A stretch of DNA of 64,000 nucleotides from a virus (IMGVR_UViG_3300033153_000868:32001-96000), one strand, 5' to 3'; counted from the first letter of the stretch, positions 12,886 through 54,378 are shown. Notes: generated by a model not told the origin, from the letters alone. Translations and numbers: made by a program.

Positions 12886-13155
12886 TTATTTCTTTTTAGA
12901 TTTCTTGTTGCTACCACCATATTGTAAAGCTCTCATGCTAGCAATATTTTTTTTGTCTTGTTCTGTTTTGAACTTAGGTCTAAAAAAAGTGCTTTCTTTA
13001 GCCTCTAATTCTTTTACAAGTTGAGCATCAGACTTATTTGGTAAGCTATCATATACATCAGTTACATCGCCACCAGCCATATAACCTTTTAGACCACCTC
13101 CTTTAGAGTATGCATCTATTTTCATTTTGTTTGTAATACCTTTCTTGTTTCCCAT
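12886..13155 (-). CDS. Small basic protein with xxxGG motifs
   Basis: 89 aa; YSKGG, YMAGG, LQYGG. Confidence 0.65.
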   Translation of the reverse strand: MGNKKGITNKMKIDAYSKGGGLKGYMAGGDVTDVYDSLPNKSDAQLVKELEAKESTFFRPKFKTEQDKKNIASMRALQYGGSNKKSKKK

Positions 13156-13157
13156 GA

Positions 13158-13358
13158 CTATTTTTTTACTTTTTTAGGGCCACCGTATTGTTTATAGTCT
13201 AATACTGAACCACCATTCATAAAACCTTTTAGTCCACCACCTTTAGCCATTGATTCCATTCCTGCTTTAGAAGGTGTAATGTCTCCATCTCCAGCACCTT
13301 TTGTAAATCCACCACCGTAAGTGTAGCTCATTCCTGCTTTTTTCATATTATTTGGCAT
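13158..13358 (-). CDS. Small basic protein with xxxGG motifs; paralogue of 12886..13155
   Basis: 66 aa; YTYGG, MAKGG, FMNGG, KQYGG; shares KGGGLKG(Y/F)MxGG with its neighbour. Confidence 0.65.
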   Translation of the reverse strand: MPNNMKKAGMSYTYGGGFTKGAGDGDITPSKAGMESMAKGGGLKGFMNGGSVLDYKQYGGPKKVKK

Positions 13359-13363
13359 AATTT

Positions 13364-13825: not shown

Positions 13826-13834
13826 GTTTTTAAT

Positions 13835-14824: not shown

Positions 14825-14827
14825 ACT

Positions 14828-15052
14828 TTATTTGCCATCATAGGTCCAACCACCCATTTTATATTTTTGTTTTTTATCTTTACCAGATCTATCTTGAACA
14901 ATTCTTTCTGCATTACCACCTTTTCTCATTTTTTCTACTACAGAACCTAGCATGATATCTTCTTCAGCAAGTTCACCACCTATTCTCATAAGTAGTTTAC
15001 TTTTCTGTCTTGTCATTTTTTGCTTTGGTAAGCAAGCTCTTTTTTTAGCCAT
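14828..15052 (-). CDS. Small basic protein with xxxGG motifs
   Basis: 74 aa; MRIGGE, MRKGG, YKMGG. Confidence 0.65.
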   Translation of the reverse strand: MAKKRACLPKQKMTRQKSKLLMRIGGELAEEDIMLGSVVEKMRKGGNAERIVQDRSGKDKKQKYKMGGWTYDGK

Positions 15053-15063
15053 TTTATTTAAAT

Positions 15064-15442: not shown

Positions 15443-15444
15443 TA

Positions 15445-15696: not shown

Positions 15697-15725
15697 AATA
15701 TGTTTTTTAAAAGTACTATATGAAT

Positions 15726-15825: not shown

Positions 15826-15835
15826 ATTACATATA

Positions 15836-25107: not shown

Positions 25108-28100
25108 TTATATAAGACATTTAAGTCTCTCAATTATTTCTTGTTCTCCCTCTTCTGTTTGTGAAAATAAATCACCGTATAAAGCTATTGCATCATCAAG
25201 TGTTTTTATATTTTCTCCAGAAAGCTTTTCTAAAGCAGCACTATTACCTTCTACATTTGCATCCCACCATTCTACTAAACTTGAAGCTTCTGAAATTTCT
25301 TCTGAAGCAAAAAGATCAAGTTCTAGTTGTTCTTGCTCTTGTTGTTCAAGTTCTGTAGCTTCTGGAATGCTCATATCAGTATCTTCTATAATAGCATTTC
25401 CTGTCTCATCAAATATAGCACTATCTGTGTTAGCAGACAACTCAGCCATTATTTTTGCCATATCAGATATATTTGTTTCTGCTGCATCTATATCTGCTTT
25501 AACTGTTACAGAATCTGTAGTTTGATTAACTATTGCTGAGTCAGAGTTTAATACTTCATTAACTTCTAGTATAGCTCCAAGATTAGTATCAACAGGATAC
25601 TCAACCTCACTAGTTTGTTGTGCTGGTTGTTCTAGTTGTGCAGCTCTATCTTGAGGTAAACTATTTTGTGTAGTTCCTTTGCCTACATTTCTTGCTTGAT
25701 CATATGTAAGTCTAGGTCCTCCTACAAAACCACCACCAAATTGTTGATTAGAACCCATAGAAGGAACTTCTAAGTATTCAGTTACCTTTGCATTAGGATT
25801 ATCTTTAGCAAGCAATCTAAACAAAACATAGAAATCTCTACCTTGTCTTTCAACTTTAACCCTTACAAACTCTTTTGCATTTACATGTTCAAAACTCTCA
25901 GAAGTAATAGTAAACTTATTAGGTCTAGAAACTGGGTCAAAAGTAAAGCCTTCATCAAGACTAGAAGCATCATAAGTGACAAGCAATGGTCCTACAACAT
26001 TAGATTGTAAGTATCCATATTTAAAATCTTTCATCACTTCTTCTTTAGAGATACCAAAGACACTTTCAAATTCTACTTGTCCTTTAAGTGCAGCTTCTAC
26101 AGAACCAACATTCTTAAGATATTTATTCATAATAAAAGGACTCATTGCACTCATAAGACTTCCATACTTAAGCTGCAATCCATCTTTAACCATCATGTAA
26201 TGCAGAATGTCTTCAGCTATTTCTCTTGTCTCAAGTGAACCATATAGTTTTGCAAAGGATGTTTGTAAATCAAGTTTATTAGATGCATTAAGTCTTCTCC
26301 ATGTATCCGCTTTTACTAAATTCATTCCTGTGTTATTACCCTGAGTTCCGGCATATTGAGTACCTACAAAATTATCTAAGAAGTAATTAGGCTCTGCACC
26401 TTGTTCAGCTCTTAGCAATTGTAAATCTTCAATTTTTTTAATCAATGATAAGTTAGTTGTACCTACAGGACCAGGATAAAGCAATGTGTTTTCTACAGAA
26501 GAATTACCAGAGCTATTATTAAGAAGATGTTGGTATGACTTAATTGTTAAATAAGATAATAGATCTTGTTCAATACCATTTTTTGCTACATTATCAAAAC
26601 CTCTTGAGTCAACATTCATTTGATTATAAGTAGGCTCTAGTATATCATTAAAGTCCTGACTCATAGTTAAAATAGTGTTAGGTAAAAGATCATTATGTAT
26701 TTGACCAAATATTTCTAAATAAGTACTCTGCCAAGTTTTGCTATTCTTACCATAAATAGGTCTGATATTCATAGGTGCTTCCTTATCAAACAAACTAGTA
26801 ATTGTCTCAATAGCATCTTTCATTTCTGGTATTGAACTAGGTAGACCTTGAGTAAGACTTGTTACTTTATTTATTTTACCTGTAAAGTTTTTAATGTTAT
26901 TAAGTCTTTCAAATAAAAATAGTATTTGAAGTCTTTCATTATTAGTTAAATCTTCAGTGCTGTCTACAGCTGTCTCTAAAAACTCATCTGATAGTTTTAC
27001 AAATGGTGGTTTATTGCCACCTTCTTTTTCCTTAGCAACTAATGAGGCTAAAGATCCAATACGTTTTGTTAAAAGAGTATCTAAACCTGCATCAAATTTG
27101 TCCTCTTTATTTAAAGCTTGATCATACAAGTCTCTTATTTCAGCAGAATTTACTAATAAAATTGAAGTTCTTAGTGGGATCCCCAATGAAACCATATTAC
27201 CAACTAAACCAACAGCATGAATATTAAGTCCAAACTTTGCTATTAAACGTTCTTTAGCATTATCAGTTTCCATTGTTACTAGAGTAGAAATAATATCTTG
27301 TATTCTTTCACCATTTATTTTGTCTTTAGTAAACCCATCATATGTATTATTATTAAATTTTATAGGTCTAGCTAATTTAATATTGTACTCACGCAATAAA
27401 CTTAAAGCTAAATTAGGTTTAACAATAGCACCAATTGCAGCTCCTTTGTTTGCTTCAAAGGCTTTTATCATTCCATGAAGTGTGTCAATATCTACATCAG
27501 AATCCTTTCTGCTTGCAAATAATTCTATACCCTCAACATTAGAAAGCTCATCAAATAAATCCTCTAATATTTTTAAGTCAGCTGCTTGATAAGCAATAGG
27601 TAAATCAGACTTACCTTCACCAGCATCTTGATCAATAGTCTTTAGTGTTTCACCTGTTACACCAGTATTACCTGCTAATACATATCTATAATCTAAAATG
27701 TTATTGTTTAAAACCGCCTCATTAGGTGATCCAAACTTTTTAGAATATTCTTCAAATTGTTTTTTAGTAACAGGAAGACCCAATATTAACATTGCTCTAA
27801 GAGCTTCTTCTGATATACTGTTTACACCTTGTTTATCTGTAACTCTATTTTGTTCAGAATCACTCAAAGAGTTTTCCCTTCTAATAGCCAAGGTTTCCTC
27901 CTTGTATAAAGAAGATGATGTACTATAAATATTATTAGGTTCAGAAGCTTTTTGATTCATGTACTTTATATACTCAAAATAAGAATTACCAGAACCGTAA
28001 GCTTTAAATTCTTTATTGCTATCTAAATAGTACTCTTTTGCCAATGCATATACTTTATCAATATCAAAATCCGCTCCTGATATTTCTACAAGTTCTTTTG

Positions 28101-31100
28101 GAAATATAGCTGTTGAACCATAATATACAGGCATAAAATCAACAACTCTTATGTTTACAGCTGAATGTTTATCTTGTGTTGGTATACGTACTCCAAACAA
28201 CTTGGCTACTGCATCTGGTATTGAAGCATTTGAATTTTCTTGAATTAACTCCATTACATTTCTATCCATAGGAGGCATAATAGTTTCACTATATCTTACT
28301 CCTGTAGGCTCCCCATTTACAACATCATCATTTTGGTATTCCATAACCCCTGTTCTAAGAACATCAAGAACAAGAATGCCATCATGTTTACCATCAACAA
28401 GATCATTTATATTTTCTAGGCTCTCTCCATTATAAGAACTTTCTCTTACAATCTCAGATCTAATAGGCATACCGTTTTTCATTTCATATACACGTCTGTA
28501 AACCTTATGACCAAATGAAGATAGTAATGCAACTGAAGTACCAGGTACTTTTTCTCTTAGTGTGCCTTTGCTAAAATAAGTCAAGAAAAGTTGTTCAAAC
28601 TTTTTAGCTGTTACCGGACTGTTTAAATTATACTTTTGAACACCATCTTCAACTCCAAAGAACTCAAGTAAGTTTGATGCAGCTCCTGAAGCCATAAGAC
28701 CTTTTTGTGCTTCTAATAAAAATGCAGCAAGATTTGGGGTAATGGCTCCTTTTTCTTTTGATAATTCTAACTCATCAAGTGCCGTGTCAAAACTAAATAC
28801 TAAATTTCTTTTGTTTTTGTATTTTAAAGTTACTCTTTCTCCTACTGCTTTGTTGTATGCGTCTCTTACTTTTCCTACAGTATTTAACTCAGGGCTTCCT
28901 TCTATAGTAATTTCTACATCATCACTTTGTTCAGAAGTTATAAGCTCCTTGATTTGGTTCATATCAGTTACTATAATCTTGTTAGAAGGGTTTACAACTT
29001 GAAGACCCAAGTAAGATGTGTCTAAATTAATAGATTGCAAATCTTGTGTTGTATCAAATACATTTGACTCAAGTAAATTAATCCCCTGTTTTAGCATTTT
29101 TATTGCTGAAACTGGAGCCGCCATTGCAAAGTTTTTATTTGCTTCTTCATTAGCTTCCATTTGTTCACGTAAATAATGAAGCTGTTGCATGTTAGGTTTA
29201 GCCTCCCACGTACCTGTTTTTTGATTATAGTTGGATGTATACTCTTTTGTTAAAACGGTAACTGACATTTTTAAAGCAGTTTTACCATCCATATATACAA
29301 ACTTCTTAGAGTTTATAAAGTCCTGTTGCTTTGCTAAATTAATAGAGTTTTCAGCAGAACCCCATGCTCTATCAGCATTTATAGACTCACCCTTATCAAT
29401 GCTATCTAGCATACTTGCCATTGCAGGACTTAATCTACCAAATGCAAAAGTAGAATATCTTATACCTTTTGTAGTAATATAAACTTGAGCATCTGCTAAT
29501 TCAATATCATTACCTGTAAAATCAGACTTAGCTGTTGGATCTTGGAAAGGATATAAATCAAAATTAGTACTAGAATGAGTAATACCTTTATTAAGATCCG
29601 TAATTTCACTATAGGCACTATAGTATGCGGCATTCTGTAGTTTTGCTCTTTTAACTTTATCAACCATGTCTTTTAAAGATACAGCTTGATCACCAAGCAG
29701 TAAATCATTCATTGACTTAGAATTGATATAGTTGTTAAAAAATATTTGTTTTAAGTTATATGCTGAATCATTTGTAAGATTTAACTTAAGTTGTGATAAT
29801 TCAACAGCACCTCTAGAAACACCAGATGCAATAGTTAATCCGTTTAATACTTGCGTAGAAAGATTATCTTTTGCTTTTAATGATGTAATCACATCATCAA
29901 ATTCTTTAAAGCTTTGCTCTAAGCTTTTATTAACTTCTGATCTAATAGATGCATTTGTTACACCTACAGCTAGTGACACAGCTTGTTTAAAAGAAACCGT
30001 CTCTCCTTGTTTAGCTTTATCAATAGCAACTTGTATTAATGCTTTTTTGGTTGATTCAGAAAGCAATAATCCATTATTAGTAAATTTGAATGCTCTGCCT
30101 TTATCAGACCTATCACTTTTTTCATTATTAAATCCTTGAATATCACCAGGTGCATTTTCAAATGCTAATGTTTCTTTGCTAATTCTATCAAACTCAGCCT
30201 CTATGCTATTTATAAATACATTAATAGCTTCTGGTGTAAGAACAACATTACCGTTAACTTCAGTAACTGCTTTAATAACAGGCAAACTTGTTAGGTCTCC
30301 AGTGTTAGCTGCTTCCATTACTCTTAAAAATACAGGAGCCATTGCAACTTGTTGGCCACCTTTTCCTTCTACAGTTTCAACTCTACCCGTTCTTCTGTTA
30401 AAATTAGAAACATAGTTGTTTATAATAGCTATAGCAAACTCTTGTGGCGTAAACTCTCCAAAACTTTGTGTTGATTTATTTTTTGATATAGATTCATTTA
30501 ATATATCTTCAACAGCTTGATCATTTTCAGCGTTTGTAATTTGCTCTTTAATTTTACTACCAGCAACTCTTATTACTTTTAGTCTATTCTGATCAGATAA
30601 GTTTAAAAATGCTTCACTATTAAGCAAATAATTATTTGATAAAAAGTCTTCACTTTTTAATTGTTCAATTTTAGATCTGTTATTTAATGACCCAATGCTT
30701 TTTAAATGATATGTAGGTAATTGATGAGCATATACAATATCACCATTAGGATTTATAAATGTTGATGATCCAATTGTTTCATCAAATGCAGCATTAGAAA
30801 TACTAAGCTTAGTAAGTCTTGATGCCATACCATCCTGTTTAGTGGAATATATATTTGCATTTGTACTAAACCCAGAATATAATTGATCTAATAAATCATT
30901 TGTTATTGGTTCCTCTGTATATCCATCTGACAATGCTTTTAATTCAGGACTGTTTTTTAAGTCAGCTTCTGTTTTAGATTTAGCAATACTATATGCAATG
31001 TAGTTAGGGCTTAATCTAATACCTATTAGATCAAACATGCGTTGAGAAAACTCTCTAGACATTTGATATGCTAAAGATGTTGACTCTGGATATGAAGTCA

Positions 31101-42463: not shown

Positions 42464-45427
42464 TTACATTCCCATCTTACCACTGTAAAATGGTACTGCC
42501 CACTTTGATAACTTTTTTATTTCTTTTCCTTTTTGTGATCTAGTTATTGTATTCCTAGCTGCATCATATCCTACTGGTGCTCCTTGAGTGTTAAGTTCAT
42601 TTTGACCATATGTTCTTTGAGTATTAGTAGAAGAACTTACAGGACCATATATTCTTTCCCACATGCTTTCTGTAACTTCCCTTTGATTACCCTTTTCATC
42701 TTTACCAACAAGTTCTTGCAGTCTTTGCCACTTTTCTATATTTGATTGAACTTGATCTCCTTGATTATCTTTCATTAATTTTTTGCCATTTGGACCAAAT
42801 TCTACTATACCTGCTCTAGATGGATTAACATTATAATAATCATACAGTTGATTCATATTATATGTATTAGCCATATTGGTAAGTCCTGCATTATATAACT
42901 CATTTGTTTTTGCAGTTTGCCAATTCTTAAAGTTATCGGCATTTTGCAATGCAGTAACTGTATCATCATATAGTTTTTTGGTTGTTGCATTATTTAACTG
43001 ATCAACTTTCATGTCTAACTGAGGCTGCATAGTTGCAACTTGATTCATAGTTCTGACATTGTTCTGATTAACTTGATTAATAGCTTTAGCATTAGCATCT
43101 AAAGTTTTACCTTGAATGTTACTACGTGCAATTGCCTGTGGACCATAAGCACCTAGTGCCTGCGCCATTGTATTTTGAGCAGCAAGATTAGCATTTACTC
43201 TACCAGTATAGTCATCTAATACATAATCAATTTTTTGATCCTCTAATACTGGAGCAAATGGAAGATATAGATTATCTTTTATATTATTTTGTGCAATAAG
43301 GTTATTTATATCTTGTTGCCACCATTGTGGATCTACTTCTGGTTTAGGTTGTACTGCTGGTTTCTTTGTAATCTTTTCTGGATCATCTGGTAAATCCATA
43401 AACTTCTCATCTCTTGGTTGATAGTTCATATCAAAACCAGGAGCATTTACAGTATAACCACCTCTCTTACCATCAAATCTTCTTTTTTTCCATTCTTTAT
43501 CTAGCTTACCATCTCCATCCTTATCATATGTAGCAGGATCATTTTTAAGTCTTTCTGCTAATACTTCATCTGTAAAGAAGTAAGGAATATATTGAACACC
43601 TTTTTTGTCAAAGTATTCTTTTCTTTTTTCTTCATATTTATTTTGAAATGTTCTCCAGTTTTTATCATAATCCGGATCTGACATTTTCATATTAAACTTA
43701 AAGTCAACCCCCTCTTCTTCTTTCATTGCATCAATGACTGCTTTATTTCTGTAATAAAAATCTTTTTCAGAATCCTCACTAGAAAAAACATTTGAACCAT
43801 AGCCAAAATTATCTGTATTTACAGCTTGAACATCAGGTAATTGATTACCAGAATACTTACCACTTATAAAAGTTGCTATATCACCTACATTAGGATCCTC
43901 ATTTAATTCTTGCTGAGTTCTTATATCTGGTGTATATGTATCTGCAAGAGCTCCTGAACCTGCTATTTTATCTTGATCAAATACTTGTACTTTAGTGCCT
44001 TCTTTCATGGTTCTACCATCAACAGCTTCTCTTACAAAAGATATTTTGTTTTTACCATCTTTCTTTACTACAGTAGGAATATATCCATCTGCTATATATT
44101 GATCATATTGTTTAGCCTTTTCACTTCCTGCTGCATATGGATTTTTATTACCACCAGACTCTACAACAGTTTCTACTTGTTTGTCAGTAGCTCCTACTTG
44201 CTTATCAGTTGTTACAGCTTCTGCCTCAGTTTCTGTTACTGTCTCAGTTACATCTTCTGTAATTCTGTATTCTTCAGGTACTTGACCATTTTGAATTGCA
44301 GCAATAGCTTGTCTTCTCAATTCTGATTTAGGAATAGGATCAGAGCCATCTTCTAAATACCAAGCTTTACCATCCCAAGTAGCATCTTTCATGTTCTTAG
44401 GATAACCAAGATTTTTTCTTTTATAATACTGTCTAGCAGTTTCACCTTTCTTTTGATAGCTTTCTAGTTCTTTACCTTCTCCTGCTTTAATTAAAAAGTC
44501 ACCCAGCTCAGTACCAAATTGAGCCATATTGCCAATCATAGCATTATTTTCCATAGCTAATCCTGGTTCACCTGCAGGTGGCATAAATGCATCCATTGGT
44601 GCAGGCATTCCTTGTTGTGGCATTTGTTGTTGAATATCTTGTTGTTGCATTTGTTGAGCCATCATTTCTTGCAACATCATTATTTGTTGCTGTTGCTCTA
44701 ATGGTAATGATGCAAATGCTTTGGCTTCTGCTTCTTTTCTTGATATCTCTTCTACTTTAGCAGTAAACTCAATTGGGTCTTCGCCAATAGAAACCAAGTA
44801 TGGATGAGATGCTAAAGGCACCCCATCTGAAAAATCTTTTTTAGCTTCTTGTATAAAGGCAAGTTTAGATAAATCATTCATATTTTTTTTAAGCATAAGC
44901 TCTGCACTTGTAGCAGAAATATTATCTGCATATTGTGAATCTAATTCTGCATAATAATCTTGCAACCCAAACTTTTTAGAAATTTTAGCTGGGGTTTTTC
45001 TACTTCCTCCTAATCCAAACTCACTCATTTCATCTTTTGAAAGTTTAAGTTTTCTTGTATCAGAAAAAATAAAAGATTGTTCTGGCAAAAACATTGGTAC
45101 ACCACCACTACTATGTCTTGGTCCTGTTATATCATATAAACCAAATGTTCCATCATCATTTAAATCAGTTAATACTGTTTCTCCACCTTCTGCTTCTAAG
45201 TTAGCATCTTCTCTAGGTACACTAGATAAACTATATCTAACAGATTCATCTTGTGAATTATTAAAGTTAGTGCTACCATAATATGCTTGTGGAGTTGTAA
45301 CCAAACCATAATCAGCTTGATCACCTGTTGTCATACCACCATCTCTCATAGACTTTGCATCTTCAACAACTTTTCCATTACGGATGCTGAAACCTTGCGG
45401 TAATTTGTTTATTTTAATTTTTGCCAT
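42464..45427 (-). CDS. crAss-like cargo protein with xxxGG/xxxGxE motifs
   Basis: 987 aa; ANLEAEGGETV..GPRHSSGGVP..FIFSD domain; Q/M-rich linker; MRDGG, AQFGTE, AGEGKE, YQKKGE, SQKGKE. Confidence 0.6.
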   Translation of the reverse strand: MAKIKINKLPQGFSIRNGKVVEDAKSMRDGGMTTGDQADYGLVTTPQAYYGSTNFNNSQDESVRYSLSSVPREDANLEAEGGETVLTDLNDDGTFGLYDITGPRHSSGGVPMFLPEQSFIFSDTRKLKLSKDEMSEFGLGGSRKTPAKISKKFGLQDYYAELDSQYADNISATSAELMLKKNMNDLSKLAFIQEAKKDFSDGVPLASHPYLVSIGEDPIEFTAKVEEISRKEAEAKAFASLPLEQQQQIMMLQEMMAQQMQQQDIQQQMPQQGMPAPMDAFMPPAGEPGLAMENNAMIGNMAQFGTELGDFLIKAGEGKELESYQKKGETARQYYKRKNLGYPKNMKDATWDGKAWYLEDGSDPIPKSELRRQAIAAIQNGQVPEEYRITEDVTETVTETEAEAVTTDKQVGATDKQVETVVESGGNKNPYAAGSEKAKQYDQYIADGYIPTVVKKDGKNKISFVREAVDGRTMKEGTKVQVFDQDKIAGSGALADTYTPDIRTQQELNEDPNVGDIATFISGKYSGNQLPDVQAVNTDNFGYGSNVFSSEDSEKDFYYRNKAVIDAMKEEEGVDFKFNMKMSDPDYDKNWRTFQNKYEEKRKEYFDKKGVQYIPYFFTDEVLAERLKNDPATYDKDGDGKLDKEWKKRRFDGKRGGYTVNAPGFDMNYQPRDEKFMDLPDDPEKITKKPAVQPKPEVDPQWWQQDINNLIAQNNIKDNLYLPFAPVLEDQKIDYVLDDYTGRVNANLAAQNTMAQALGAYGPQAIARSNIQGKTLDANAKAINQVNQNNVRTMNQVATMQPQLDMKVDQLNNATTKKLYDDTVTALQNADNFKNWQTAKTNELYNAGLTNMANTYNMNQLYDYYNVNPSRAGIVEFGPNGKKLMKDNQGDQVQSNIEKWQRLQELVGKDEKGNQREVTESMWERIYGPVSSSTNTQRTYGQNELNTQGAPVGYDAARNTITRSQKGKEIKKLSKWAVPFYSGKMGM

Positions 45428-45429: not shown

Positions 45430-48231
45430 TTATAATTTTTCTATGTCAGCTCCAGCTGCAATTAGTTTTGCCAACATTCTTGAATCAACTTCTACAGTCT
45501 GCTCTCCTCCATTTTGTTTTTTTGATTTAATCAAATGAATGTAACCATTGTCATCATCATAATAATCAGCGGTCTTAAAATCATATGATCTACCATCTTC
45601 ACTTGGATCTGAAGTATAATAAGGAGCTTTATTTTTATAATTTACATTAACAGGTTGACCTGCATTATATGCTTCAGGATCAATTTGTGATGCTAAGTAT
45701 TGTTGTAGTTTAAACTCAGGAAACATTCTAGCACCACTTAAGTTATTGCTATTACCTATAAACAGTGTATCATTTTCAGTAACTCCCATTTGAGACATAA
45801 TATCTTTTATAGCAGTTTTATCATTTTTGTTTTTATCTCTAAATAACTCTATATACTCTTGTAGATAATTATGATCATAGTTTTTAATTCTTTCTTTTCT
45901 TTCTTTTCTTGTTTCTCCAGCATCTTGAGCTTTAGCTAACTCTCTTTTAATAACTCTATCTCTATTTGCTAAGTATGCTTCTTCTCCTTTAGCTCCACCA
46001 TATGCCATATTACTAAGTATGTTATGCTGTGCTTCTGGAGGCAATGCTTTAAAGCCAGGATTGTTTACACCACCACCTTCTTTACTCATATATAATCCTG
46101 TTGTTCTATCACCCTCACTACCCATTAGTCCGGTGTTTACATCAAAAGTCCCCCTCTTATTAAATGCATCAGTAGTAGTTCCATATAAATTATCTGCAAC
46201 TACATCACCACGCATATCTGCATAAGCATTATTCCATTCTTTTTGCTGGTAAATATCATTAAAAATATCAGCTGTTTGAACTGCTGCATTAGATAAATCA
46301 CCAAATAATCTACCACCTATTGTATTTGGAAATCTTAGTAAGCTATTATTAAAATTACTAAGTAAAGCATTAGGACTTTTATCCTTTTTGGCTGTAGGAA
46401 GATTTATATCTCCAAATAAATCTGCTGCTGTTCTTTGAGCAGGTTGACTATTTGTTTGATCTTCTGTTGGATTTGGATTAAAAGGATTATCAAACTGTTC
46501 TTCATATTCTGCATACAGCTGTTGAGCATTGGCACCACCTCTTGTAACAGGGTCTTGCACCACCCATTCCTTAAAGGTAAGCTTATCATTTGCTACCGGA
46601 CCTCCAGCTGAACCTGCATACTGTTTAATAGGAAGCTCTGCTCCATACATAGCAAACATTTCTTGAAAGTCTGTAAGATAAGGAAGGCCTTTTTCAAACT
46701 TTGGGTCTAAAGGACCATCATAGTCTTTTGGTATAAACATATCAAAATTCGGATCATTACCTTCAATAGCATCTTCACCAGGTCCTTGATTAAATTCAGG
46801 ATCTAAATCTACTTCTTGTGGATCTTTCTTTTCAGTAGCAGGAAACCTACCTTCAGCAGACATTGGATCTACTTGATATTCAGTTGGTATTTCTTGTCCT
46901 TTCTTTTTTAATATAGATTCAATATATGCTTTTGTTTCTGCTGTTCCTGTTTGCCATTTCTTTAGCAGATCATCAGAGATTTTTTTTACTGCACTTGGAG
47001 CATTTACATCATCTAGTATTCTATCTGCTTCTGTTTTTATAATATTTCCTAATGCATCTTTCTGTTGATCTAGTTCTGGATTTTCAATTTTAAATTGTTC
47101 AAACCATTTAGCTGCAGCATTTTTATTTTCATCACTTAAATCAAATTCAAATTTATATTTAGTATCTGCTGCTTTTTGTAATTGATTAGATATTCTTCTT
47201 CCTTTCCAATCTCTAAAACTGCCATCTTTTACACCATCACCATCTTCATCTTTACCGCTAAATAAATCTTTTCCTACTGAACTAATTGCATTAAGAGTTT
47301 TACCCAAATTTAAACCACTGCTTGTTTTAAATAAAGCAGGATTAAACATAAAAGGATCTGGATTTATATATCCATTGTCATTTTGATCTACATAATCTTT
47401 AATTACATTTTTATCTTGATCAGTGACTTTTACATTATTACCAGAAATATCTATATTACTATTCTTTGCAGCATTTGCAAAAGAATTCATCATGTCTAAG
47501 TTATCTGTGCCAGCAGAGTTTGATGTTTCTTTTCCTTCTTGTGCTTTAGGTGCATCATGAGTATATCCGGCTTTCTTTAATCTAAGGTGAGCTTCATGAT
47601 CCCTTGCTCTAATCTTTCTATCACCTTTATACATAAAGTGTGGCTCAAATTCACCACCTTCTTCCTTCTTCCATCCAGCAGCATTCTTAGCAAAGTTTGC
47701 CATTTTTACTACTGATGGTGGATAATTATCCGTGTTACTCATAACTTTGTTATAAGCTTCAGATACTGACATACCTCTTGCTTTAGCCCATCTAGTAAAC
47801 TTACCTTTATTTTCAGGTTTAATTTCTATACCAGATTTAGCTTGATCAATAGATGTAATATCCATATCCATAGCAGGAGCTTGTTCTTGCATTTCTTCTG
47901 CTCTTGCTAGTTGTTGAGGATTATTTGTTATTTCTTGAGGGCTGGGTTCTTTTGGTTGTTGCATCCTTTGAACTTCTTCAAACAATTGAATGATTGCTTC
48001 CTCTTCATAACCAAGTTGCATAAGTGCTTGACCTATAAGATTTTGATCTACTTCTTGTTGCATTAATCCCATTAATACTTCTTGAGGTTGTCTACCCTCA
48101 TCAATAGATGTAGAAAATATTTCAGTTATTTGCATAACTTGTGGATCAACTTGAGGCTGCTGTTGCATTCCAGGTTGACCAGGCATCATTGCACCTCCTT
48201 GTTGTTTTACACTTTTTTTGTTTAAATCCAC
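45430..48231 (-). CDS. Modular virion cargo polyprotein
   Basis: 933 aa, GTG start; 10 motif copies delimit short modules, e.g. IEIKPENKGKFT...ANFAKNAAGWK. Confidence 0.6.
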   Translation of the reverse strand: MDLNKKSVKQQGGAMMPGQPGMQQQPQVDPQVMQITEIFSTSIDEGRQPQEVLMGLMQQEVDQNLIGQALMQLGYEEEAIIQLFEEVQRMQQPKEPSPQEITNNPQQLARAEEMQEQAPAMDMDITSIDQAKSGIEIKPENKGKFTRWAKARGMSVSEAYNKVMSNTDNYPPSVVKMANFAKNAAGWKKEEGGEFEPHFMYKGDRKIRARDHEAHLRLKKAGYTHDAPKAQEGKETSNSAGTDNLDMMNSFANAAKNSNIDISGNNVKVTDQDKNVIKDYVDQNDNGYINPDPFMFNPALFKTSSGLNLGKTLNAISSVGKDLFSGKDEDGDGVKDGSFRDWKGRRISNQLQKAADTKYKFEFDLSDENKNAAAKWFEQFKIENPELDQQKDALGNIIKTEADRILDDVNAPSAVKKISDDLLKKWQTGTAETKAYIESILKKKGQEIPTEYQVDPMSAEGRFPATEKKDPQEVDLDPEFNQGPGEDAIEGNDPNFDMFIPKDYDGPLDPKFEKGLPYLTDFQEMFAMYGAELPIKQYAGSAGGPVANDKLTFKEWVVQDPVTRGGANAQQLYAEYEEQFDNPFNPNPTEDQTNSQPAQRTAADLFGDINLPTAKKDKSPNALLSNFNNSLLRFPNTIGGRLFGDLSNAAVQTADIFNDIYQQKEWNNAYADMRGDVVADNLYGTTTDAFNKRGTFDVNTGLMGSEGDRTTGLYMSKEGGGVNNPGFKALPPEAQHNILSNMAYGGAKGEEAYLANRDRVIKRELAKAQDAGETRKERKERIKNYDHNYLQEYIELFRDKNKNDKTAIKDIMSQMGVTENDTLFIGNSNNLSGARMFPEFKLQQYLASQIDPEAYNAGQPVNVNYKNKAPYYTSDPSEDGRSYDFKTADYYDDDNGYIHLIKSKKQNGGEQTVEVDSRMLAKLIAAGADIEKL

Positions 48232-48291: not shown

Positions 48292-51200
48292 TTAAGCTTT
48301 ATAAAGATGAGTCAAAATATAATTTGGTGGAGACATGTTTCCTAACTCTTTTGCATCTTTATAATGTTTTCTATTTAATTTATCATATATACTTTTAGCT
48401 TTAGCTTCTTCATTAGTACCATCATATATTCCATCCATATAATCTTTATACATCTGAAGCTTTTTCTTTTCTCCACCTATTTTATAATCTGGCATGTACT
48501 TACCCAATTGCTGAAATTTCAAATATTTAGCATTTTTCTTAACTCCTTCAGTATATGTCTTACCGTCATCTTTGCTTGAACCACCCCAATGTTTAGGAAG
48601 AGTATTAAACAAATCATTTCTATCTACACCTTCTCTATTGTTAGCTAAAAATGCTAATCTTAACACAGTAGCAATTGCTGCTTTCTCAGGATCTAACAAA
48701 TCTTTATTAGATGTTATTCCAAATTTCTTTAAAATATTTATTTGTTTTTTATTTTCTGGTAAGTTTTTATCTTCTTTAGCTATATTTTCCCATCTAAGCT
48801 GAGTTAACCCAACACTATTATAATCTTCTTGTGCACTTTTAGAATAAGTTGGTAAGTTAATATTTGATGATTGTGCTGCAATTGCTAATAAAGGAGAAAC
48901 ATTTGATAACTGATTAGTGGTATCTAATGTAAAACCTTCATATTTTTTAAACACATCAGGAGATGAAGTTACAGTAGGTAACAGATTAGTTGAACCTACT
49001 ACTGGCAATTGACCTTTTTTATTTAGGTCAGCAACATATTTGTTGGCTCCTCTTAAAAGGTTACCTGATTTACTATGCGTGTCACCAAAATTAGATTCAT
49101 TACCATAAATACCAAAAGCAATTCTAGCAATATCATTATATACATCACTAGGTATACCTGCTTCTTGCATTATTTGTTTCTTGTTATTTACTAAAGCATT
49201 TATAAATGGCTTTGTTGAATTTTCTTGTTCTTCTTTATCTGATGTATCTGACGTAAAGAAATTACCAACAGATTTTAAACCTCCTGTTTCATTATACACA
49301 TCTTCTTCAAAAGCCTGTTGATCAAACACTGGACGTATAGGTTGATAGTTTAATGTGTTTACAGTATAGTTAGATCCTTGTTGAGTTTGCTCACTACCTT
49401 TAGAGTCAATATAATTAGATGCATATTTTTCTCTATTATCTTTAGACATTTTTAATACAGCTTGTCCATCAACCCATTGGAAATTATTACCTTCATCTTC
49501 TGGTAATATATATACTGCTGTACCTGCTGGCATTCCTAAATCATATAATGCTTGCAAATCACTACATTGACCATTTACACAGCCATTACTTGCTCTATTA
49601 TTATCTATATTACCATCATCAAATAAACCTTTTCTACCTTTTGTGGGTCCATGAATAGCTGTAGCTACATCTATATCAGTACCATCTGTATATAAATTAA
49701 ATGAAGGAACACCTTTACCACCATATTTATCAGGTGAATCAGCATAACTTTCTTTTATATAATACTTACCAGCACCTGTATTTTTATTACCGGCACTCCA
49801 ATTAGGAATCCACTTACCATTTCTTTTATCTTCATCTGTTATTTGTCCATCATTATTCAAATCCCACATTTTTGTTACAGTTAAAGCATCACCTTCATTA
49901 GCACCTGTAAGAACTTCAAAATCTAATACTGGTTTGCCACCCCTCCAAACTTCTAATCTTTTTGTTTTTTTGTTTACTATAACATAATGACCATTTGGAT
50001 CATTAACCATTTGTGATTTTTTTATAATATCTTCATCAGATGAATCATTAATATTTCTTCTATCCTGATCCAACAGCTCAACATCTTGCCAAGTTTCTTC
50101 AATTTCATCTACTGGTTCATATGAATCTTGAGGTATCCTTAGTTCTTGATTAACAAAAATTTCATTAATATTAGATATATCATTTTCTTGTGCTAACTTT
50201 CTTACTGTTGTACCATATTTAGTTGCTATTCTTCCAAGAGTATCACCAGACTTTACATCATAAAAAGCATATTTAGTTTTACTCTTTGGTAATTTTATTT
50301 CTTGATTTATTGAAATCTTACTCGGATTAGCTATATCATTTAACTCAGCTATCTCATCTACAGTAGTTCCATATTTATCTGCTATTCTAGTTAAGTTATC
50401 TCCAGACTTTACAGTGTATATATTTAATTCTTCTTTTGGTTTTTCATTTTGTTTTTCTGGTTCACGTAAAGGGCCAACAAAAGAAGAGTTTAATTCTGGA
50501 AGTTCTTCAACATAATTAGATGGCATCCATAATTGACTATAGTCATAACCTTCTTGCTCATTTTCTCTCACAGGTCCAGCAAATTGTTTTTCAGGAAGAT
50601 CATCTTGATATTTATATAATTGCTTATAGTAATCATATGCTTCATCAGTAGTTGTCTTTAGAAAATTTTCCTGTACATTAGGTCTGCCTTCTGTATTTTT
50701 ATCAAACAAAATCATATCAATATAATCTTGAGTTTCTTTAGGTAATCTAGAAACCCATTGAACATCATTATATATATCCAGACCTTCTTCTTTTAATTCA
50801 TTTAGCAAATCTCTTGTATTACCTCTACCCCAGTTATATGCTGCTAGTGTTTTAATCAATCTTACATCTTGATCTTGATTTTCCTTATTTATAAATGATG
50901 AGTTATACAATTCATTCATAGACCATTCTTGGACATCATGATTTTGTTCAGGATCATATGGATCTATTTCTTTAACATTTTTTGCTTTCTTATAATCTGC
51001 TATAAGACTATCTCCTATTTGACCAAGACCCATATAACCTGCACTACTTTTAGCTTTTGGATTTAAGTTAGATTCAACAAAAGCTTGCTTATACAATAGA
51101 TTAGGGTTAATACTATTTTTATTTTCTACCTTTTTATCAGAGTCTTTAGGGATATAGATTCTATCATAAAACTCATATGGTTTTATGGCTGCATTTGCTA

Positions 51201-54200
51201 TACTGTTAAAATCATACTTATCATATATAGAAAGATATTTCTGATCTTTTGCTTTGTCATAACCTACCTCAACTTGAAAATTTTGTAATGGATCAATATT
51301 CATAAATTGTTCTGGTGTTACTTTACCATCAGAACCATCTTCAGTTTTACTCCAATAATCTTCTTTCATGTAACCCGCTAAGCCATCAACAGTTTCTTTA
51401 TATCCTATAGGGAGATCTTTAAAGTCTGATATCATACTTTCTCTATCAAGTATATCATCTGATATTTTATAATATTGCACTCCTTCCTCTTTTGAATTGG
51501 TTGGTGAATATTCTGTTTGCTTTTGTATATATTTTTCTTTAGGATTAAGACCAAGCGCACGTGCCCATGCTTCTTCAGAAAAATCATAATCACCATCAGA
51601 ATCAAACAAGGGTTTTGTTGGTTCTGTTATACCCAGTGCATTACCTATTGCACCAAATGCTTCTTTAGTAATGCTGCCAAAACCAGGATAACTTTCAGGT
51701 CTTACTTCTTGAAATATTTTAAATCTAGTTTCAAGATCAAGTTCTGGATTAAGTATGTCCTTAGTTTTTTTACCTAACCAATCATTAAAGCTATCTGCTT
51801 TTTCAGCAGCACCTTTTAAAACTGGTATTACTGCATCATCTAATGTATTACCTCCTCTTTGGTAGAGTTTATTAATTCTTTGCTGTGTATCTATTTGTTT
51901 GCTATTGGGTTTCCATTTTGATGGACCATAATAATCTATTATATCTTCATTGTCTACTCCGCTCATAGCAAGCTTAGCCTTTTCTTCAGAATCATATATT
52001 CCTATAGTTCCACCGGTACTTATATCACGCACTATAATCCTTCCGTCACCTGTTTTTATAGATACTAATTGACTTTTAGATTTTTTTACAGGTTCTGAAA
52101 GTGGAGGCTTATCATTCATGTCAAAATCAGACATCAGCTTTTGTAAAGGTTTTAACTCTGGCTTTTCTATAAATTGATGTCCAAGTTCATACCATGCACT
52201 TTTAATAGTGTCATTATTTTTAATAGATGTAAAACTATCAATTTTGTTATTTTCAGCATAATCTGGATAATATTTGTTTATCCATTGTCTAAATACACTT
52301 TCATCTACATCAGATGGTAAGTCTGATAAATTATATTTAATATCATGCGGTAATTTTAAAACAGGCATCTCAGGATATTGATCTGATAAATCAGCTGCTG
52401 GATCAAAGTATGGTATATGTTTTAAGTTACTTTTGTTGCTGACTCCAGGATTTGCACCTACTTTAGCTTTACCATACTTTCCTAATGTTTGTATTGCATT
52501 TTGCCAATCCGGATTATTCTCCTGCCAATTTTCTCTTTCTTTAACTGTATTAAAAGTTGTGTCTTTATATTGATTATACCAAACATCTTTATAAAGTTCT
52601 TTTGCTTTTTCTATATCTGCTATGCTTTGATTTCTTTTATTCAATTCTATCTGATAAGCCTTACGTGCTGCATCATTTTCTAATTGTTTTTCTCTTACTC
52701 TTGGGTCAAATATTGATTCATATACATCATCCTCATTATATCTAATGTTTACATTTTCATCCGGTGTATAAAATCTATTTAGCACTTCAAGACCAGATTG
52801 AGCATACCGTAATTTATCTTTGCTGTCATCTGCAGATGAAATCTCATTTAATTGATTAAAAATCTCATCATTACTATATACATCCTGTAATTGCATTAAT
52901 GGATTGTAACCATCTGACTCTCCTCTGTTTAACTCTGAAGTTCTATCAATTATTTGTTGAAATTTTTCTCTAGTTAATGGCTCAGTCATAGGATCATATA
53001 TTCCTAGATCTTTTGCTGCTGACCTAATTGTATTTAATCTAGTTCTAGCTTCAGTAGGATCAGAAACATAATCTCCCCAGGGGCTTCTCTCTATTTCTAT
53101 CTGTCCTTCTTTTACAGACCCATCTCTATTAAAAGCTACTATGGGATTACCATCTGCATCATAGGTTCCATAGCTTGCTATATCAATATTATTTATTATA
53201 GGATTTCCATCATCATCATACCCCTCTATATTAACCCTTTCGTCTTCAAATCTTTTAATAGTTTTTTGAGGTATAAGTCTATCTGAATTAAGGTTTTTAT
53301 ATATCTGTATAGCCCTATCTTCAAGATCGTTTGTTTCTTGGCCAGTAATATAATTATATGCTTGATTTGCCAAAGCAACATAGTTTGGTAAAACTACACT
53401 GCTTGGTCTAGTACTTAGTGAAGCATTTGCTAAAGCAATTTTATCTCCAATGCTTAAGTTATCTTTATATCTTTTTAATGTATCTTTTCCAACTCTATCT
53501 CCACTATGGCCTACTTCATGTTCAAAAGTGTTTTCATAAACATGCCCTTCATGATCAGTATGTGATGGTTTAAAAAATTCAAGTTCACCATTCTTACTCC
53601 AAGATGTTGCACCTACACCTTCATCTTCGTGTGTATTAGGATTTACTATTATAGGTACGTTTTGTAAATTACCTATTCTACTATTAGTTATAAATTCAGC
53701 ATCATCATTTGGACCAACTTCATTTGCTAATATTTTTTTATACATGGGTGAATCTAACCATTGTCTTTGAAATGAATTATCAACACTTTCTTGATTAGGT
53801 ACAACTCCTTTAATATCATTTACTTCACCCCTTAACTGAAATTTAGGTTTCCAAGAACCTTCTCCAAACTTTATAGCAGCTTCTTTATCTGCTCCAAAGT
53901 CTATAAGCTCACCTCTTCTTTTAGCTTCTTCATATGCTTCTTTCCAAGGTTTATTAGACATATCAACCCAAGTACCATCCGGATCTTGGAATAATGTTGG
54001 AAATGAAAACCAGTTCTTTCCATCTAAAGTTTCAGTAGCCATAAGGTGTGTTGACTCACTACCATCAGGATTTTTTCTAGCACCTTGTCTTTTAGGTACT
54101 TCAATACCATTTTGAGCCATAGGCGTTTCCATTACCATATCACCTGGAAATTGATATTCATTTTCAGGCATCATCATTTGTGAATTACCAAGGTTATCTA

Positions 54201-54378
54201 CACCCATAATAGGAAAGTCTACATCTTTCATGCTTATGTTTCCTGACGGAATGAAATTAACCGGATTGGTTTTATCTGGGCTATCATTTCTATACCCATC
54301 TACAGATATATATTGTGTTATATCTATTAAGAACTCATTTGGTCCTCCTGGTAATCCTATGCTCTTTCTTTTTCCCAT
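48292..54378 (-). CDS. Multidomain virion protein: zincin peptidase, lytic transglycosylase, 2x LysM, L,D-transpeptidase (YkuD) and a second lysozyme-like domain
   Basis: 2028 aa; HEVGH; VESNLNP..S.AGYMGLGQI..LAAYNWG..ETQDY; YTVKSGDNL/YDVKSGDTL LysM; IHG..SNGCVN; GNESNFG..SVGLTQL. Confidence 0.82.
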   Translation of the reverse strand: MGKRKSIGLPGGPNEFLIDITQYISVDGYRNDSPDKTNPVNFIPSGNISMKDVDFPIMGVDNLGNSQMMMPENEYQFPGDMVMETPMAQNGIEVPKRQGARKNPDGSESTHLMATETLDGKNWFSFPTLFQDPDGTWVDMSNKPWKEAYEEAKRRGELIDFGADKEAAIKFGEGSWKPKFQLRGEVNDIKGVVPNQESVDNSFQRQWLDSPMYKKILANEVGPNDDAEFITNSRIGNLQNVPIIVNPNTHEDEGVGATSWSKNGELEFFKPSHTDHEGHVYENTFEHEVGHSGDRVGKDTLKRYKDNLSIGDKIALANASLSTRPSSVVLPNYVALANQAYNYITGQETNDLEDRAIQIYKNLNSDRLIPQKTIKRFEDERVNIEGYDDDGNPIINNIDIASYGTYDADGNPIVAFNRDGSVKEGQIEIERSPWGDYVSDPTEARTRLNTIRSAAKDLGIYDPMTEPLTREKFQQIIDRTSELNRGESDGYNPLMQLQDVYSNDEIFNQLNEISSADDSKDKLRYAQSGLEVLNRFYTPDENVNIRYNEDDVYESIFDPRVREKQLENDAARKAYQIELNKRNQSIADIEKAKELYKDVWYNQYKDTTFNTVKERENWQENNPDWQNAIQTLGKYGKAKVGANPGVSNKSNLKHIPYFDPAADLSDQYPEMPVLKLPHDIKYNLSDLPSDVDESVFRQWINKYYPDYAENNKIDSFTSIKNNDTIKSAWYELGHQFIEKPELKPLQKLMSDFDMNDKPPLSEPVKKSKSQLVSIKTGDGRIIVRDISTGGTIGIYDSEEKAKLAMSGVDNEDIIDYYGPSKWKPNSKQIDTQQRINKLYQRGGNTLDDAVIPVLKGAAEKADSFNDWLGKKTKDILNPELDLETRFKIFQEVRPESYPGFGSITKEAFGAIGNALGITEPTKPLFDSDGDYDFSEEAWARALGLNPKEKYIQKQTEYSPTNSKEEGVQYYKISDDILDRESMISDFKDLPIGYKETVDGLAGYMKEDYWSKTEDGSDGKVTPEQFMNIDPLQNFQVEVGYDKAKDQKYLSIYDKYDFNSIANAAIKPYEFYDRIYIPKDSDKKVENKNSINPNLLYKQAFVESNLNPKAKSSAGYMGLGQIGDSLIADYKKAKNVKEIDPYDPEQNHDVQEWSMNELYNSSFINKENQDQDVRLIKTLAAYNWGRGNTRDLLNELKEEGLDIYNDVQWVSRLPKETQDYIDMILFDKNTEGRPNVQENFLKTTTDEAYDYYKQLYKYQDDLPEKQFAGPVRENEQEGYDYSQLWMPSNYVEELPELNSSFVGPLREPEKQNEKPKEELNIYTVKSGDNLTRIADKYGTTVDEIAELNDIANPSKISINQEIKLPKSKTKYAFYDVKSGDTLGRIATKYGTTVRKLAQENDISNINEIFVNQELRIPQDSYEPVDEIEETWQDVELLDQDRRNINDSSDEDIIKKSQMVNDPNGHYVIVNKKTKRLEVWRGGKPVLDFEVLTGANEGDALTVTKMWDLNNDGQITDEDKRNGKWIPNWSAGNKNTGAGKYYIKESYADSPDKYGGKGVPSFNLYTDGTDIDVATAIHGPTKGRKGLFDDGNIDNNRASNGCVNGQCSDLQALYDLGMPAGTAVYILPEDEGNNFQWVDGQAVLKMSKDNREKYASNYIDSKGSEQTQQGSNYTVNTLNYQPIRPVFDQQAFEEDVYNETGGLKSVGNFFTSDTSDKEEQENSTKPFINALVNNKKQIMQEAGIPSDVYNDIARIAFGIYGNESNFGDTHSKSGNLLRGANKYVADLNKKGQLPVVGSTNLLPTVTSSPDVFKKYEGFTLDTTNQLSNVSPLLAIAAQSSNINLPTYSKSAQEDYNSVGLTQLRWENIAKEDKNLPENKKQINILKKFGITSNKDLLDPEKAAIATVLRLAFLANNREGVDRNDLFNTLPKHWGGSSKDDGKTYTEGVKKNAKYLKFQQLGKYMPDYKIGGEKKKLQMYKDYMDGIYDGTNEEAKAKSIYDKLNRKHYKDAKELGNMSPPNYILTHLYKA

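Follow-up and report, generated by a model that had tools for sequence, protein, structure and literature searches.

The window, a 64,000-nucleotide stretch of viral DNA, comes from a marine, crAss-like phage with a complete genome of 114 kb (rated 100% complete). The phage belongs among the crass-like viruses because of its tail ring proteins R1 (312 aa; Pfam CrAss_Ring_1, 34.9 bits) and R2 (224 aa; Pfam CrAss_Ring_2, 65.1 bits), both of which exceed the cut-off of 27. The genes of the modular proteins considered here adjoin the tail-ring and muzzle-like genes, and homologues encoded at this location travel in the virion and are then ejected. Within the modular proteins a short peptide, referred to below as the tag, occurs repeatedly. 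The relevant features are the following.

12886..13155, minus strand: 89-aa protein, three tags, Lys-rich tail; paralogue of the 66-aa protein
13158..13358, minus strand: 66-aa basic Gly-rich protein, four tags (YTYGG, MAKGG, FMNGG, KQYGG), Lys-rich tail
14828..15052, minus strand: 74-aa basic protein, nearly all tags (MRIGGE, MRKGG, YKMGG); conserved in related loci
25108..38931, minus strand: 4607-aa giant protein, not tag-enriched; YHEAFH at aa 2135, DFDID at aa 3621
42464..45427, minus strand: 987-aa protein with conserved tags
45335..45349, minus strand: MRDGG, N-terminal cap tag, aa 27-31 of the 987-aa protein; 10/10 orthologues
45430..48231, minus strand: 933-aa modular protein, from homology to crAss001 gp45 and orthologue alignment
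45502..45519, minus strand: KQNGGE, C-terminal cap tag, aa 905-910 of the 933-aa protein; 9/9 orthologues
47650..47667, minus strand: KEEGGE, aa 189-194 of the 933-aa protein; 10/10 orthologues
47824..47841, minus strand: AKSGIE, aa 131-136 of the 933-aa protein; 10/11 orthologues
48193..48207, minus strand: KQQGG, N-terminal cap tag, aa 9-13 of the 933-aa protein; 11/11 orthologues
48292..54378, minus strand: 2028-aa modular protein, from Pfam and PHROGs; orthologue indels end at its tags
48469..48486, minus strand: YKIGGE, C-terminal cap tag, aa 1965-1970 of the 2028-aa protein; deletions in L006 and L013 end here
54100..54120, minus strand: MAQNGIE, P-x-A-Q-x-G-x-E variant, aa 87-93 of the 2028-aa protein; 8/10 orthologues
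60680..62304, minus strand: crAss-type tail ring proteins R1 and R2 (Pfam CrAss_Ring_1, CrAss_Ring_2)

The tag is genuine and conserved, a 'seam and cap' peptide with the consensus [K/A/M/Y]-[K/Q]-x-G-G-(E)-hydrophobic and a variant P-K-A-Q-x-G-x-E. Three large proteins (2028, 933 and 987 aa) and three tiny ones (66, 74 and 89 aa) carry it, close to either end of the chain and at every joint where exchangeable modules meet. A first-pass annotation had listed about 31 copies. All 21 strings that it named in the three large ORFs are present at the residues given, and the three to four copies ascribed to each small ORF agree with Phi-x-x-G-G counts of 4 (66 aa), 3 (74 aa) and 3 (89 aa). Against composition-matched shuffles, the six proteins contain the strict form [AYFMKS][QKER]xGGE 4 times (0.13 expected), [AYFMKS][QKER]xGG 14 times (2.25 expected) and the GxE/xGE form 17 times (3.4 expected). 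The loosest form is barely enriched, with 72 copies observed and 52 expected. Consequently, some of the 31 listed copies are loose matches; KQFAG, KQYAG, AGEGKE and YQKKGE are weakly conserved among orthologues.

The enrichment is confined to these carriers. The core pattern is found 27 times in the six proteins as against 5.7 in shuffles (6.5 per 1000 aa), compared with 2 observed and 6.0 expected in the plus-strand early and replication proteins, 7 and 10.9 in the other minus-strand proteins, and 11 and 9.2 in the other giants (2095, 1152, 4607 and 1925 aa). The lack of comparable enrichment in the replication proteins, noted in the first-pass annotation, is borne out. The description of the tag as 'universal' has to be dropped, as neither the 4607-aa protein with its RNA polymerase motif (3 tags observed, 3.8 expected) nor the 1152-, 1925- and 2095-aa proteins are enriched. 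The carriers also differ in local sequence: one of [KRQE] stands two residues before GG at 18/32 sites in the six proteins and at 14/133 in the rest of the genome (p = 1e-7), tag positions -3 and -2 are most often occupied by Lys and Gln, and the tag Glu is followed by a hydrophobic residue at 10/17 sites, compared with 3/18 controls.

In the 2028-aa protein, Pfam places an SLT domain at 1083-1196, two LysM domains at 1321-1421 and a YkuD domain at 1464-1624; a zincin-like HEVGH lies at aa 287. Its tags, at aa 87, 180, 525, 839, 1264 and 1965, all fall outside the Pfam ranges, as had been claimed, but this is weak by itself because the three domain types cover just 18% of the protein. The orthologues range in length from 409 to 2061 aa. 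The HExxH module is present in 7 of 11 and missing in 4 that retain tags, and YkuD is missing from short orthologues that likewise retain them. Four orthologues lack the 307-aa module that lies between RYAQSG and YQRGG, and keep RYAQKGG in its place; L013 lacks the 870-aa SLT-LysM-YkuD block and keeps FKQQGG, L006 lacks a 710-aa block and keeps YKQGGE, and L002 has a 100-aa insertion immediately after MAQNGIE. Synteny with phi4:1 proteins verified by mass spectrometry suggests that the 2028-aa protein is delivered in the virion.

The 933-aa protein provides the link to a structurally characterized virion. Its residues 119-196 are homologous to residues 360-437 of the crAss001 cargo protein C1, gp45 (BLASTP E = 7e-9 over 83 residues; Bayfield et al. 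2023, PMC10172136; PDB 7QOG, 7QOI, 7QOJ, 7QOL, 8CKB), and a phmmer search of the PDB returns 7qog_M, 'Cargo protein 1 gp45', at E = 0.009. It follows from the alignment that KEEGGEF pairs with NTQGGDF (gp45 431-437). The N-terminal cap KQQGG falls where the protein is most conserved, with invariant columns clustered at aa 4-30. AKSGIE immediately precedes the module IKPENKGKFT, and a cr127_1 protein begins MTIEIKKENRGKFT at this same boundary. At KEEGGE, insertions in L006 and L013 have a copy of the tag on each side. Where L002 and L006 have one tag, AQQGGE or AQTGGE, the protein encoded in the window carries AQDAGE (aa 768) and KQNGGE, separated by an insertion of 135 aa; the conserved tail VDSRMLAKLIAAGADIEKL comes after KQNGGE. 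In L014 the orthologue is divided into two ORFs at a tag. In the neighbouring 987-aa protein, besides MRDGG at aa 27, AQFGTE (aa 302) is kept in 10/10 and SQKGKE (aa 964) in 8/10 orthologues.

Overall, about a dozen of the tags persist in 8-11 of 9-11 orthologues, and individual tags are conserved while their flanks diverge. Synonymous Gly codons at the tags vary as in the background, so the constraint acts on the peptide. Indels that span 40 or more alignment columns give 91 distinct junctions, and 33 of these are no further than 6 aa from a motif, where 8.7 would be expected. The reading of the motif as a module boundary is therefore upheld by the orthologue alignments, and so is the cassette-like modularity, in that whole modules are gained or lost exactly at tags; of the first interpretation as a whole, the boundary and cassette role stands and universality does not. 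The 74-aa protein is conserved in related loci L022-L041, with its invariant columns falling on the tags, and the 66- and 89-aa paralogues have KGGGLKG[FY]M[NA]GG in common. AlphaFold2 models of low confidence (mean pLDDT 39 and 61) place every GG of the 74-aa protein at a helix end or turn and, in the 933-aa protein, the tags in gaps between the more confident blocks 30-90, 143-185 and 196-228.

The reading that is slightly favoured is that the tag is an uncut seam or docking tag rather than a cleavage site. It would most likely act as a helix-breaking, flexible seam, so that each module in turn could fold, unfold and be threaded through the tail. A docking role is plausible as well: the tag may be a generic handle that lets the inner parts of the virion (portal, tail barrel) grip the chain as it is loaded and then ejected in order, and a new module could then be spliced in if it brought its own tag. 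We infer both the uncut state of the chains and any docking role from several lines of evidence, namely the limitation of the enrichment to six proteins, the conserved tags, the indels at tags, the variable Gly codons, the tentative AlphaFold2 placement of tags between blocks with GG at helix ends or turns, and the complete genome, in which no recognisable maturation protease was found. The crAss001 structure points in the same direction: gp45 425-552 is modelled from cryo-EM as one portal-bound domain, three GG including NTQGGDF fall inside this stretch, and gp45 is read as a single chain spanning tail and capsid (PMC10172136). Counted against the uncut seam are the processing-like layout, the Glu-hydrophobic bias, the conserved YHEAFH and the low confidence of the models. 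A peptide-mass re-analysis of the published crAss001 gel MALDI lists, over bands 1-10, did not find gp45.

The main competing explanation, doubtful yet substantial, is that the tags are cleavage sites and that the polyproteins are cut after G-G or G-x-E at head maturation or after ejection. The enzyme could be the phage's own, with a virion zincin-like domain as candidate, or the host's, and cutting would free modules and short basic peptides. The layout does resemble processing systems, with basic N-terminal leaders ending in a tag, internal joints, small proteins made of tags alone, and a last tag followed by a basic tail of 6-13 residues; the bias towards a hydrophobic residue after G-x-E fits a G-x-E|hydrophobic site, which the T4 L/I-x-E and phiKZ S/A/G-x-E sites resemble. 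The split L014 orthologue and the cr127_1 gene that begins at a tag boundary also agree with cutting. Zincin-like motifs are at hand, HEVGH in the 2028-aa protein and YHEAFH in the 4607-aa protein, where it is fused with DFDID; crAss001 gp47 has the identical YHEAFH at aa 2157. Only the YHEAFH of the 4607-aa protein, which matches the crAss 'putative RNAP catalytic subunit' (tblastn, E = 2e-12 to 2e-9), qualifies as a candidate for a protease conserved in the virion. Fused crAss virion proteins have been described as 'likely cleaved', and a zincin-like domain was named (Drobysheva et al., bioRxiv 10.1101/2020.03.07.982082).

Several observations argue against cleavage. Across the complete genome there are no matches to the T4-type S77 (PF03420), HK97-type S78 (PF04586) or ClpP-type (PF00574) families or to the C39 double-glycine leader peptidase (PF03412), nor, at E <= 1, to adenain C5 (PF00770) or Ulp1-like C48 (PF02902), although a very divergent enzyme could escape such a search; the PHROGs of the head and tail genes include no protease. 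The HExxH module is missing from the four tag-keeping orthologues noted above, and the giant fused 4607-aa protein, which the literature would expect to be cut, has no tag enrichment. The homologous GG of gp45 sits within a continuously modelled domain. As for crAss001 virions, gp47 and gp49 give full-length gel bands with peptides from end to end, although both are without tags. It is conceivable, but rather unlikely, that crass-like phages run an unrecognised maturation or activation system in which a virion zincin-like protease (YHEAFH) or a host enzyme cuts cargo at G-G/G-x-E tags. If so, cutting would free enzymes, channel-forming pieces and small basic peptides and would parallel, in viruses of bacteria, the core processing of adenovirus and ASFV; the most abundant human gut viruses belong to this group.

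It is very improbable that the tags are sites of covalent chemistry, either Lys/Gln isopeptide links or a Gly acceptor for a phage L,D-transpeptidase, tying cargo to cargo or to the cell wall. The predominance of Lys and Gln at -3 and -2 and the YkuD domain of the 2028-aa protein invite this speculation, which draws on general enzymology, but those positions are not invariant, short orthologues keep tags without YkuD, no transglutaminase-like enzyme was found, and nothing observed in crAss001 supports it. That the pattern is a functionless by-product of composition or post-hoc fitting, as the weak enrichment of the loosest form and the choice of pattern and proteins after they had been seen might suggest, can be rejected with near certainty on the shuffles, the within-genome contrast, the positional conservation in orthologues, the junction test and out-of-sample phages: the first-pass pattern occurs 6 times in Rudgehvirus gene49 (0.32 expected), a variant pattern 7 times in crAss001 gp45 (2.3 expected), and [KRQE]xGG 9 times (2.0 expected) in phi4:1 gp040, which mass spectrometry identifies as a virion protein.

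No earlier description of the tag pattern was found, and three known systems are close to it in part. Polyvalent proteins are giant, multi-domain proteins delivered with DNA that combine a zincin-like peptidase, a lytic transglycosylase and effectors and show rapid module turnover; they are reportedly treated by Iyer, Burroughs, Anand, de Souza and Aravind (2017) for phages and conjugative elements. The 2028-aa ORF has this combination, with HEVGH alongside SLT, two LysM and YkuD, its virion delivery being probable from synteny. To our knowledge, no conserved junction peptide has been described for polyvalent proteins, whereas here one recurring tag marks joints, chain ends and whole small proteins. 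The second likeness is to viral maturation motifs, which are (M/I/L)xGG|x in adenovirus, GG|x in ASFV, L/I-x-E| for T4 gp21 and S/A/G-x-E| for phiKZ gp175. The tags resemble these in that a short Gly-Gly or G-x-E comes back in several proteins presumed to lie inside the virion, both at propeptide-like ends and at internal joints, with very small basic proteins included. Unlike in those systems, the matching protease families are absent; compared with adenovirus P4, the Met or aromatic residue of the tag lies one position further from GG. We know of no crass-like virus with demonstrated cleavage. Giant virion RNA polymerase proteins of the same virus group have been proposed to be cut, with a zincin-like domain in the virion (Drobysheva et al., bioRxiv 10.1101/2020.03.07.982082), and the 4607-aa protein has YHEAFH and DFDID in one chain, but what was proposed there applies to the RNA polymerase cluster, in which this phage shows no tag enrichment, and no cleavage motif was named.

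The closest counterpart is crAss001 C1. The paper that describes it leaves the motif unmentioned ('glycine' occurs 0 times, 'motif' once and 'repeat' once; PMC10172136). The portal-binding domain itself (PF25725 crAss_CARG1, gp45 425-552) was not matched anywhere in the genome at E <= 10, and in Pfam the 933-, 987- and 2028-aa proteins do not match this family. Shared with gp45 are a genomic location that follows the ring and muzzle genes, the 933-aa protein's module IKxENKGKFT...NAxxW, a basic N-terminus followed by GG, and a Lys-rich C-terminal tail past the last GG. Copies of [YF]-G-G at aa 209, 332, 427 and 562 of gp45 flank the cryo-EM-ordered stretches 214-245 and 425-552. The gp45 consensus is A-[YF]-G-G, as against [KQ]-x-G-G-E and A-Q-x-G-x-E in this phage, and unlike crAss001 this phage has three large and three small carriers, with enzyme modules strung between the tags.

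The window's virus is a marine crAss-like podophage. Its record (114,219 bp, direct terminal repeats, rated 100% complete) has a GC content of about 32%; the window corresponds to bases 32001-96000, and the portal and terminase genes lie beyond it. Two tail ring proteins, R2 with 224 aa and R1 with 312 aa, exceed the Pfam cut-offs; they are encoded in the minus-strand late block, where ORFs of 2095, 2028, 933, 987, 1152, 4607 and 1925 aa follow them. For the 2095-aa ORF there are hits to 'virion structural protein' PHROGs and, by tblastn, to Cellulophaga phi4:1 and phi17:2, Flavobacterium FPSV phages and the crAss-like csAssE-Sib. The 2028-, 933- and 987-aa ORFs stand at the position of cargo proteins C1 and C2 in crAss001. 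The 4607-aa ORF, with the RNA polymerase motif DFDID (aa 3621) and matches to crAss genes for a 'putative RNAP catalytic subunit', seems to join a part resembling crAss001 gp47 to an RNA polymerase catalytic part; tblastn of its first 2300 aa gave no match in cultured phages. The features discussed here are as follows (window coordinates).

9671-12286, minus strand: 871-aa protein
12886-13155, minus strand: 89-aa tagged protein
13158-13358, minus strand: 66-aa tagged protein
13835-14824, minus strand: 329-aa protein
14828-15052, minus strand: 74-aa tagged protein
16950-18546, plus strand: ribonucleotide reductase large subunit (481 aa)
25108-38931, minus strand: 4607-aa protein
42464-45427, minus strand: 987-aa tagged protein
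45430-48231, minus strand: 933-aa tagged protein
48292-54378, minus strand: 2028-aa tagged protein

As a separate observation, the ribonucleotide reductase ORF matches profile positions 261-795 of 975 only, and its start is overlapped by a 57-aa ORF; it seems either to lack the N-terminal third or to have it encoded separately.

The tag is a short glycine peptide described in the first-pass annotation as [AYFMKS]-[QKER]-x-G-G-E, and the observed pattern is confirmed: all of the strings listed there are present at the residues named. Relative to composition-preserving shuffles, the six proteins contain 4 strict copies (0.13 expected), 14 of [AYFMKS][QKER]xGG (2.25 expected) and 17 of the GxE/xGE form (3.4 expected). 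The loosest form reaches 72 against 52; consequently, the core signal behind the list of 31 copies is strong, but part of that list is padding. The core pattern occurs 27 times in the six proteins (5.7 expected), compared with 2 against 6.0 in plus-strand early and replication proteins, which bears out the absence of comparable enrichment in the replication proteins. Other minus-strand proteins give 7 against 10.9, and the other giants (2095, 1152, 4607 and 1925 aa) 11 against 9.2, so that describing the tag as universal is unsupported. Among all Gly-Gly sites of the genome, K, R, Q or E stands two residues upstream at 18/32 sites in the six proteins and at 14/133 elsewhere (p = 1e-7). Because both the pattern and the proteins had been picked post hoc, support was sought out of sample. 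In the gut crassvirus Rudgehvirus jaberico, gene49 has 6 copies of the original pattern (0.32 expected). A [YF]GG variant occurs 7 times (2.3 expected) in crAss001 gp45, and [KRQE]xGG 9 times (2.0 expected) in gp040 of Cellulophaga phage phi4:1, which is annotated as structural from MS/MS and comes directly after the 2095-aa ORF's homologue.

As a consensus, the tag is [K/A/M/Y]-[K/Q]-x-G-G-[E], with T, V, L, I or M preferred at the next position. A variant reads P-K-A-Q-x-G-x-E, and several orthologues have a two-part form, Y-G-G-x-L-P-K-A-Q-x-G-G. The residue after the tag-final Glu is hydrophobic in 10/17 cases, compared with 3/18 at other G-x-E sites. All tagged proteins begin with a basic N-terminus, where the first tag comes within 10-30 residues, and the last tag lies 6-64 residues from the C-terminus; a Lys/Arg-rich tail follows it in crAss001 gp45, in Rudgehvirus gene49 and in the small proteins. 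The 66-, 74- and 89-aa ORFs are composed almost wholly of tags and are kept in 20 related loci, where the invariant columns fall on the tags. Their neighbours in the same block include fibre-like and holin-like genes. Independently of the tag, the 871-aa, 329-aa and 175-aa proteins (the last at genome 12857-13384, minus strand, beyond the window) have roughly 30 N-terminal residues in common (MS.I[LI]QD...L.R.K.KK), a pattern typical of fibres or spikes plugging into one adaptor.

The AlphaFold2 model obtained for the 933-aa protein has low overall quality (mean pLDDT 39), but residues 30-90, 143-185 and 196-228 form confident blocks, and the tags at 9, 131, 189 and 230 fall in the low-confidence gaps between them. 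A wide VIA-align fold search with this model returned nothing above Z = 6, with generic helical matches only. For the 74-aa protein, a model of low confidence (mean pLDDT 61) has each GG at a helix end or turn, and the ESM Atlas returned only unnamed clusters. In the 2028-aa protein the tags indeed never fall inside domains, as had been claimed, but with Pfam domains making up 18% of its length the result carries no significance by itself.

Comparison of orthologues from fifteen related IMG/VR loci separates conserved from variable tags. Orthologues differ greatly in length: those of the 933-aa ORF span 443-1009 aa and those of the 2028-aa ORF 409-2061 aa. Among aligned orthologues, retention is complete for KQQGG (11/11), KEEGG, MRDGG and AQFGTE (10/10 each) and KQNGG (9/9), and high for AKSGIE (10/11), SKEGG (9/10), SQKGKE and AQNGIE (8/10 each); others on the original list are not conserved. 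At KEEGG, insertions in two loci (L006 and L013) are each flanked by two tag copies. The 135 aa between AQDAGE and KQNGGE in the window are represented by a single AQTGGE or AQQGGE in L002 and L006, RYAQKGG is left in four loci without a 307-aa module, and L006 retains YKQGGE in place of a 710-aa block, L013 FKQQGG in place of an 870-aa one (SLT-LysM-YkuD). For gaps of at least 40 columns, 33/91 distinct junctions lie within 6 residues of a tag, compared with 8.7 expected (binomial p = 5e-12); the junctions are not fully independent, and the aligner anchors gaps on conserved islands, which amounts to the same biological statement. The proposal that modules are gained and lost as cassettes at the tags is thereby supported. 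Tag Gly codons mirror the background; therefore, the constraint acts on the peptide, and a role as DNA-level recombination repeats was rejected.

Two further observations concern the 933-aa orthologues. In L014:9995-12779 (IMGVR_UViG_3300000101_000015) two overlapping ORFs (443 and ~490 aa) replace the single gene, the break falling directly after the tag IKKGG; this reflects either real gene fission or a frameshift in an A-rich run. L007:549-3572 and L008:10001-13030 have an extra module of ~300 aa between two tags, whose Cys...His pattern (GYGCTSYGCG...AHTMIFTG) looks like a CHAP/NlpC-P60-type amidase.

The tag may well act as an uncut seam or handle in cargo chains. That it is a cleavage site is possible, though rather unlikely. 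A conserved candidate enzyme exists: the motif Y-H-E-A-F-H at aa 2135 of the 4607-aa protein recurs identically at aa 2157 of crAss001 gp47, and fused crAss virion proteins have been described as 'likely cleaved', with a zincin-like domain named (Drobysheva et al., bioRxiv 10.1101/2020.03.07.982082). This zincin-like YHEAFH is the one conserved protease candidate. The complete genome gave no match to S77, S78, ClpP, C5, C48 or C39, none of the head and tail genes was recognised as a protease by PHROGs or Pfam, and literature searches brought up no account of crass cargo proteins being proteolysed. HEVGH (aa 287 of the 2028-aa protein) marks a module that was rejected as a general protease because only 7/11 orthologues have it. 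An early 364-aa protein (genome 29717-30811, plus strand, just before the window) contains a zincin-type HELLHIAFGH and is a second possible metallopeptidase, but belongs to the early gene block. The 438-aa gene beside the portal gene (L017; genome 1461-2777, minus strand, beyond the window) was considered as a hidden protease and rejected. It is 74-100% identical in 281 IMG/VR stretches, far more conserved than the cargo genes, and its probably helical product is acidic at the N-terminus and Lys/Glu-rich, and is therefore probably a scaffolding protein. Pfam and PHROGs searches with the tagged proteins and single modules found no family for the tag, the 933- and 987-aa proteins or the small proteins. 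That the tag is a site of covalent chemistry is very improbable, and chance is scarcely credible.

Of all parts of crass-like virions, the cargo proteins are understood least, as regards their selection, loading, ordering and threading through the tail. Neither the crassvirus structure paper (PMC10172136), a 2023 review nor full-text literature searches yielded a description of the tag. With its place at every chain end and module joint, and its conservation between phages of marine Flavobacteriia and Crassvirales of the human gut, it offers a direct handle on cargo loading and threading, amenable to mutation, searches of mass-spectrometry data and inspection in deposited crAss001 maps. It also provides a rule for dividing giant unannotated proteins into modules and explains the swapping of effector domains (SLT, LysM, YkuD, zincin, CHAP-like) as cassettes in such phages.

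The known system for comparison is crAss001. Peptide-mass fingerprinting of its published gel bands assigns gp47 to band 3 and gp49 with gp44 to band 4, with peptides end to end; gp47 and gp49 appear as full-length species, and gp45 is at chance level in bands 1-10. In the same gel data (PMC6235969, supplementary source data), gp44 (muzzle) occurs together with gp34 in two bands above 300 kDa, which would fit a covalently linked tail complex. The best PDB match of the 933-aa protein is 7qog_M, 'Cargo protein 1 gp45', and gp45 residues 360-437 align with its residues 119-196 (BLASTP E = 7e-9). Within this alignment, AKSGIE followed by IKPENKGKFT corresponds to AKDGGD followed by IKIKEKNKGKFT in gp45, and KEEGGEF corresponds to NTQGGDF. 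Bayfield et al. (PMC10172136) modelled gp45 214-245 in the tail barrel and 425-552 as a single compact portal-bound domain, and read gp45 as one chain bridging the two. The [YF]-G-G copies at gp45 209, 427 and 562 flank these ordered stretches; 425-552 opens with A-F-G-G and includes the aligned Q-G-G-D. Since the aligned Gly-Gly lies inside a domain modelled as continuous, the chain is uncut after Gly-Gly at the sole comparable site.
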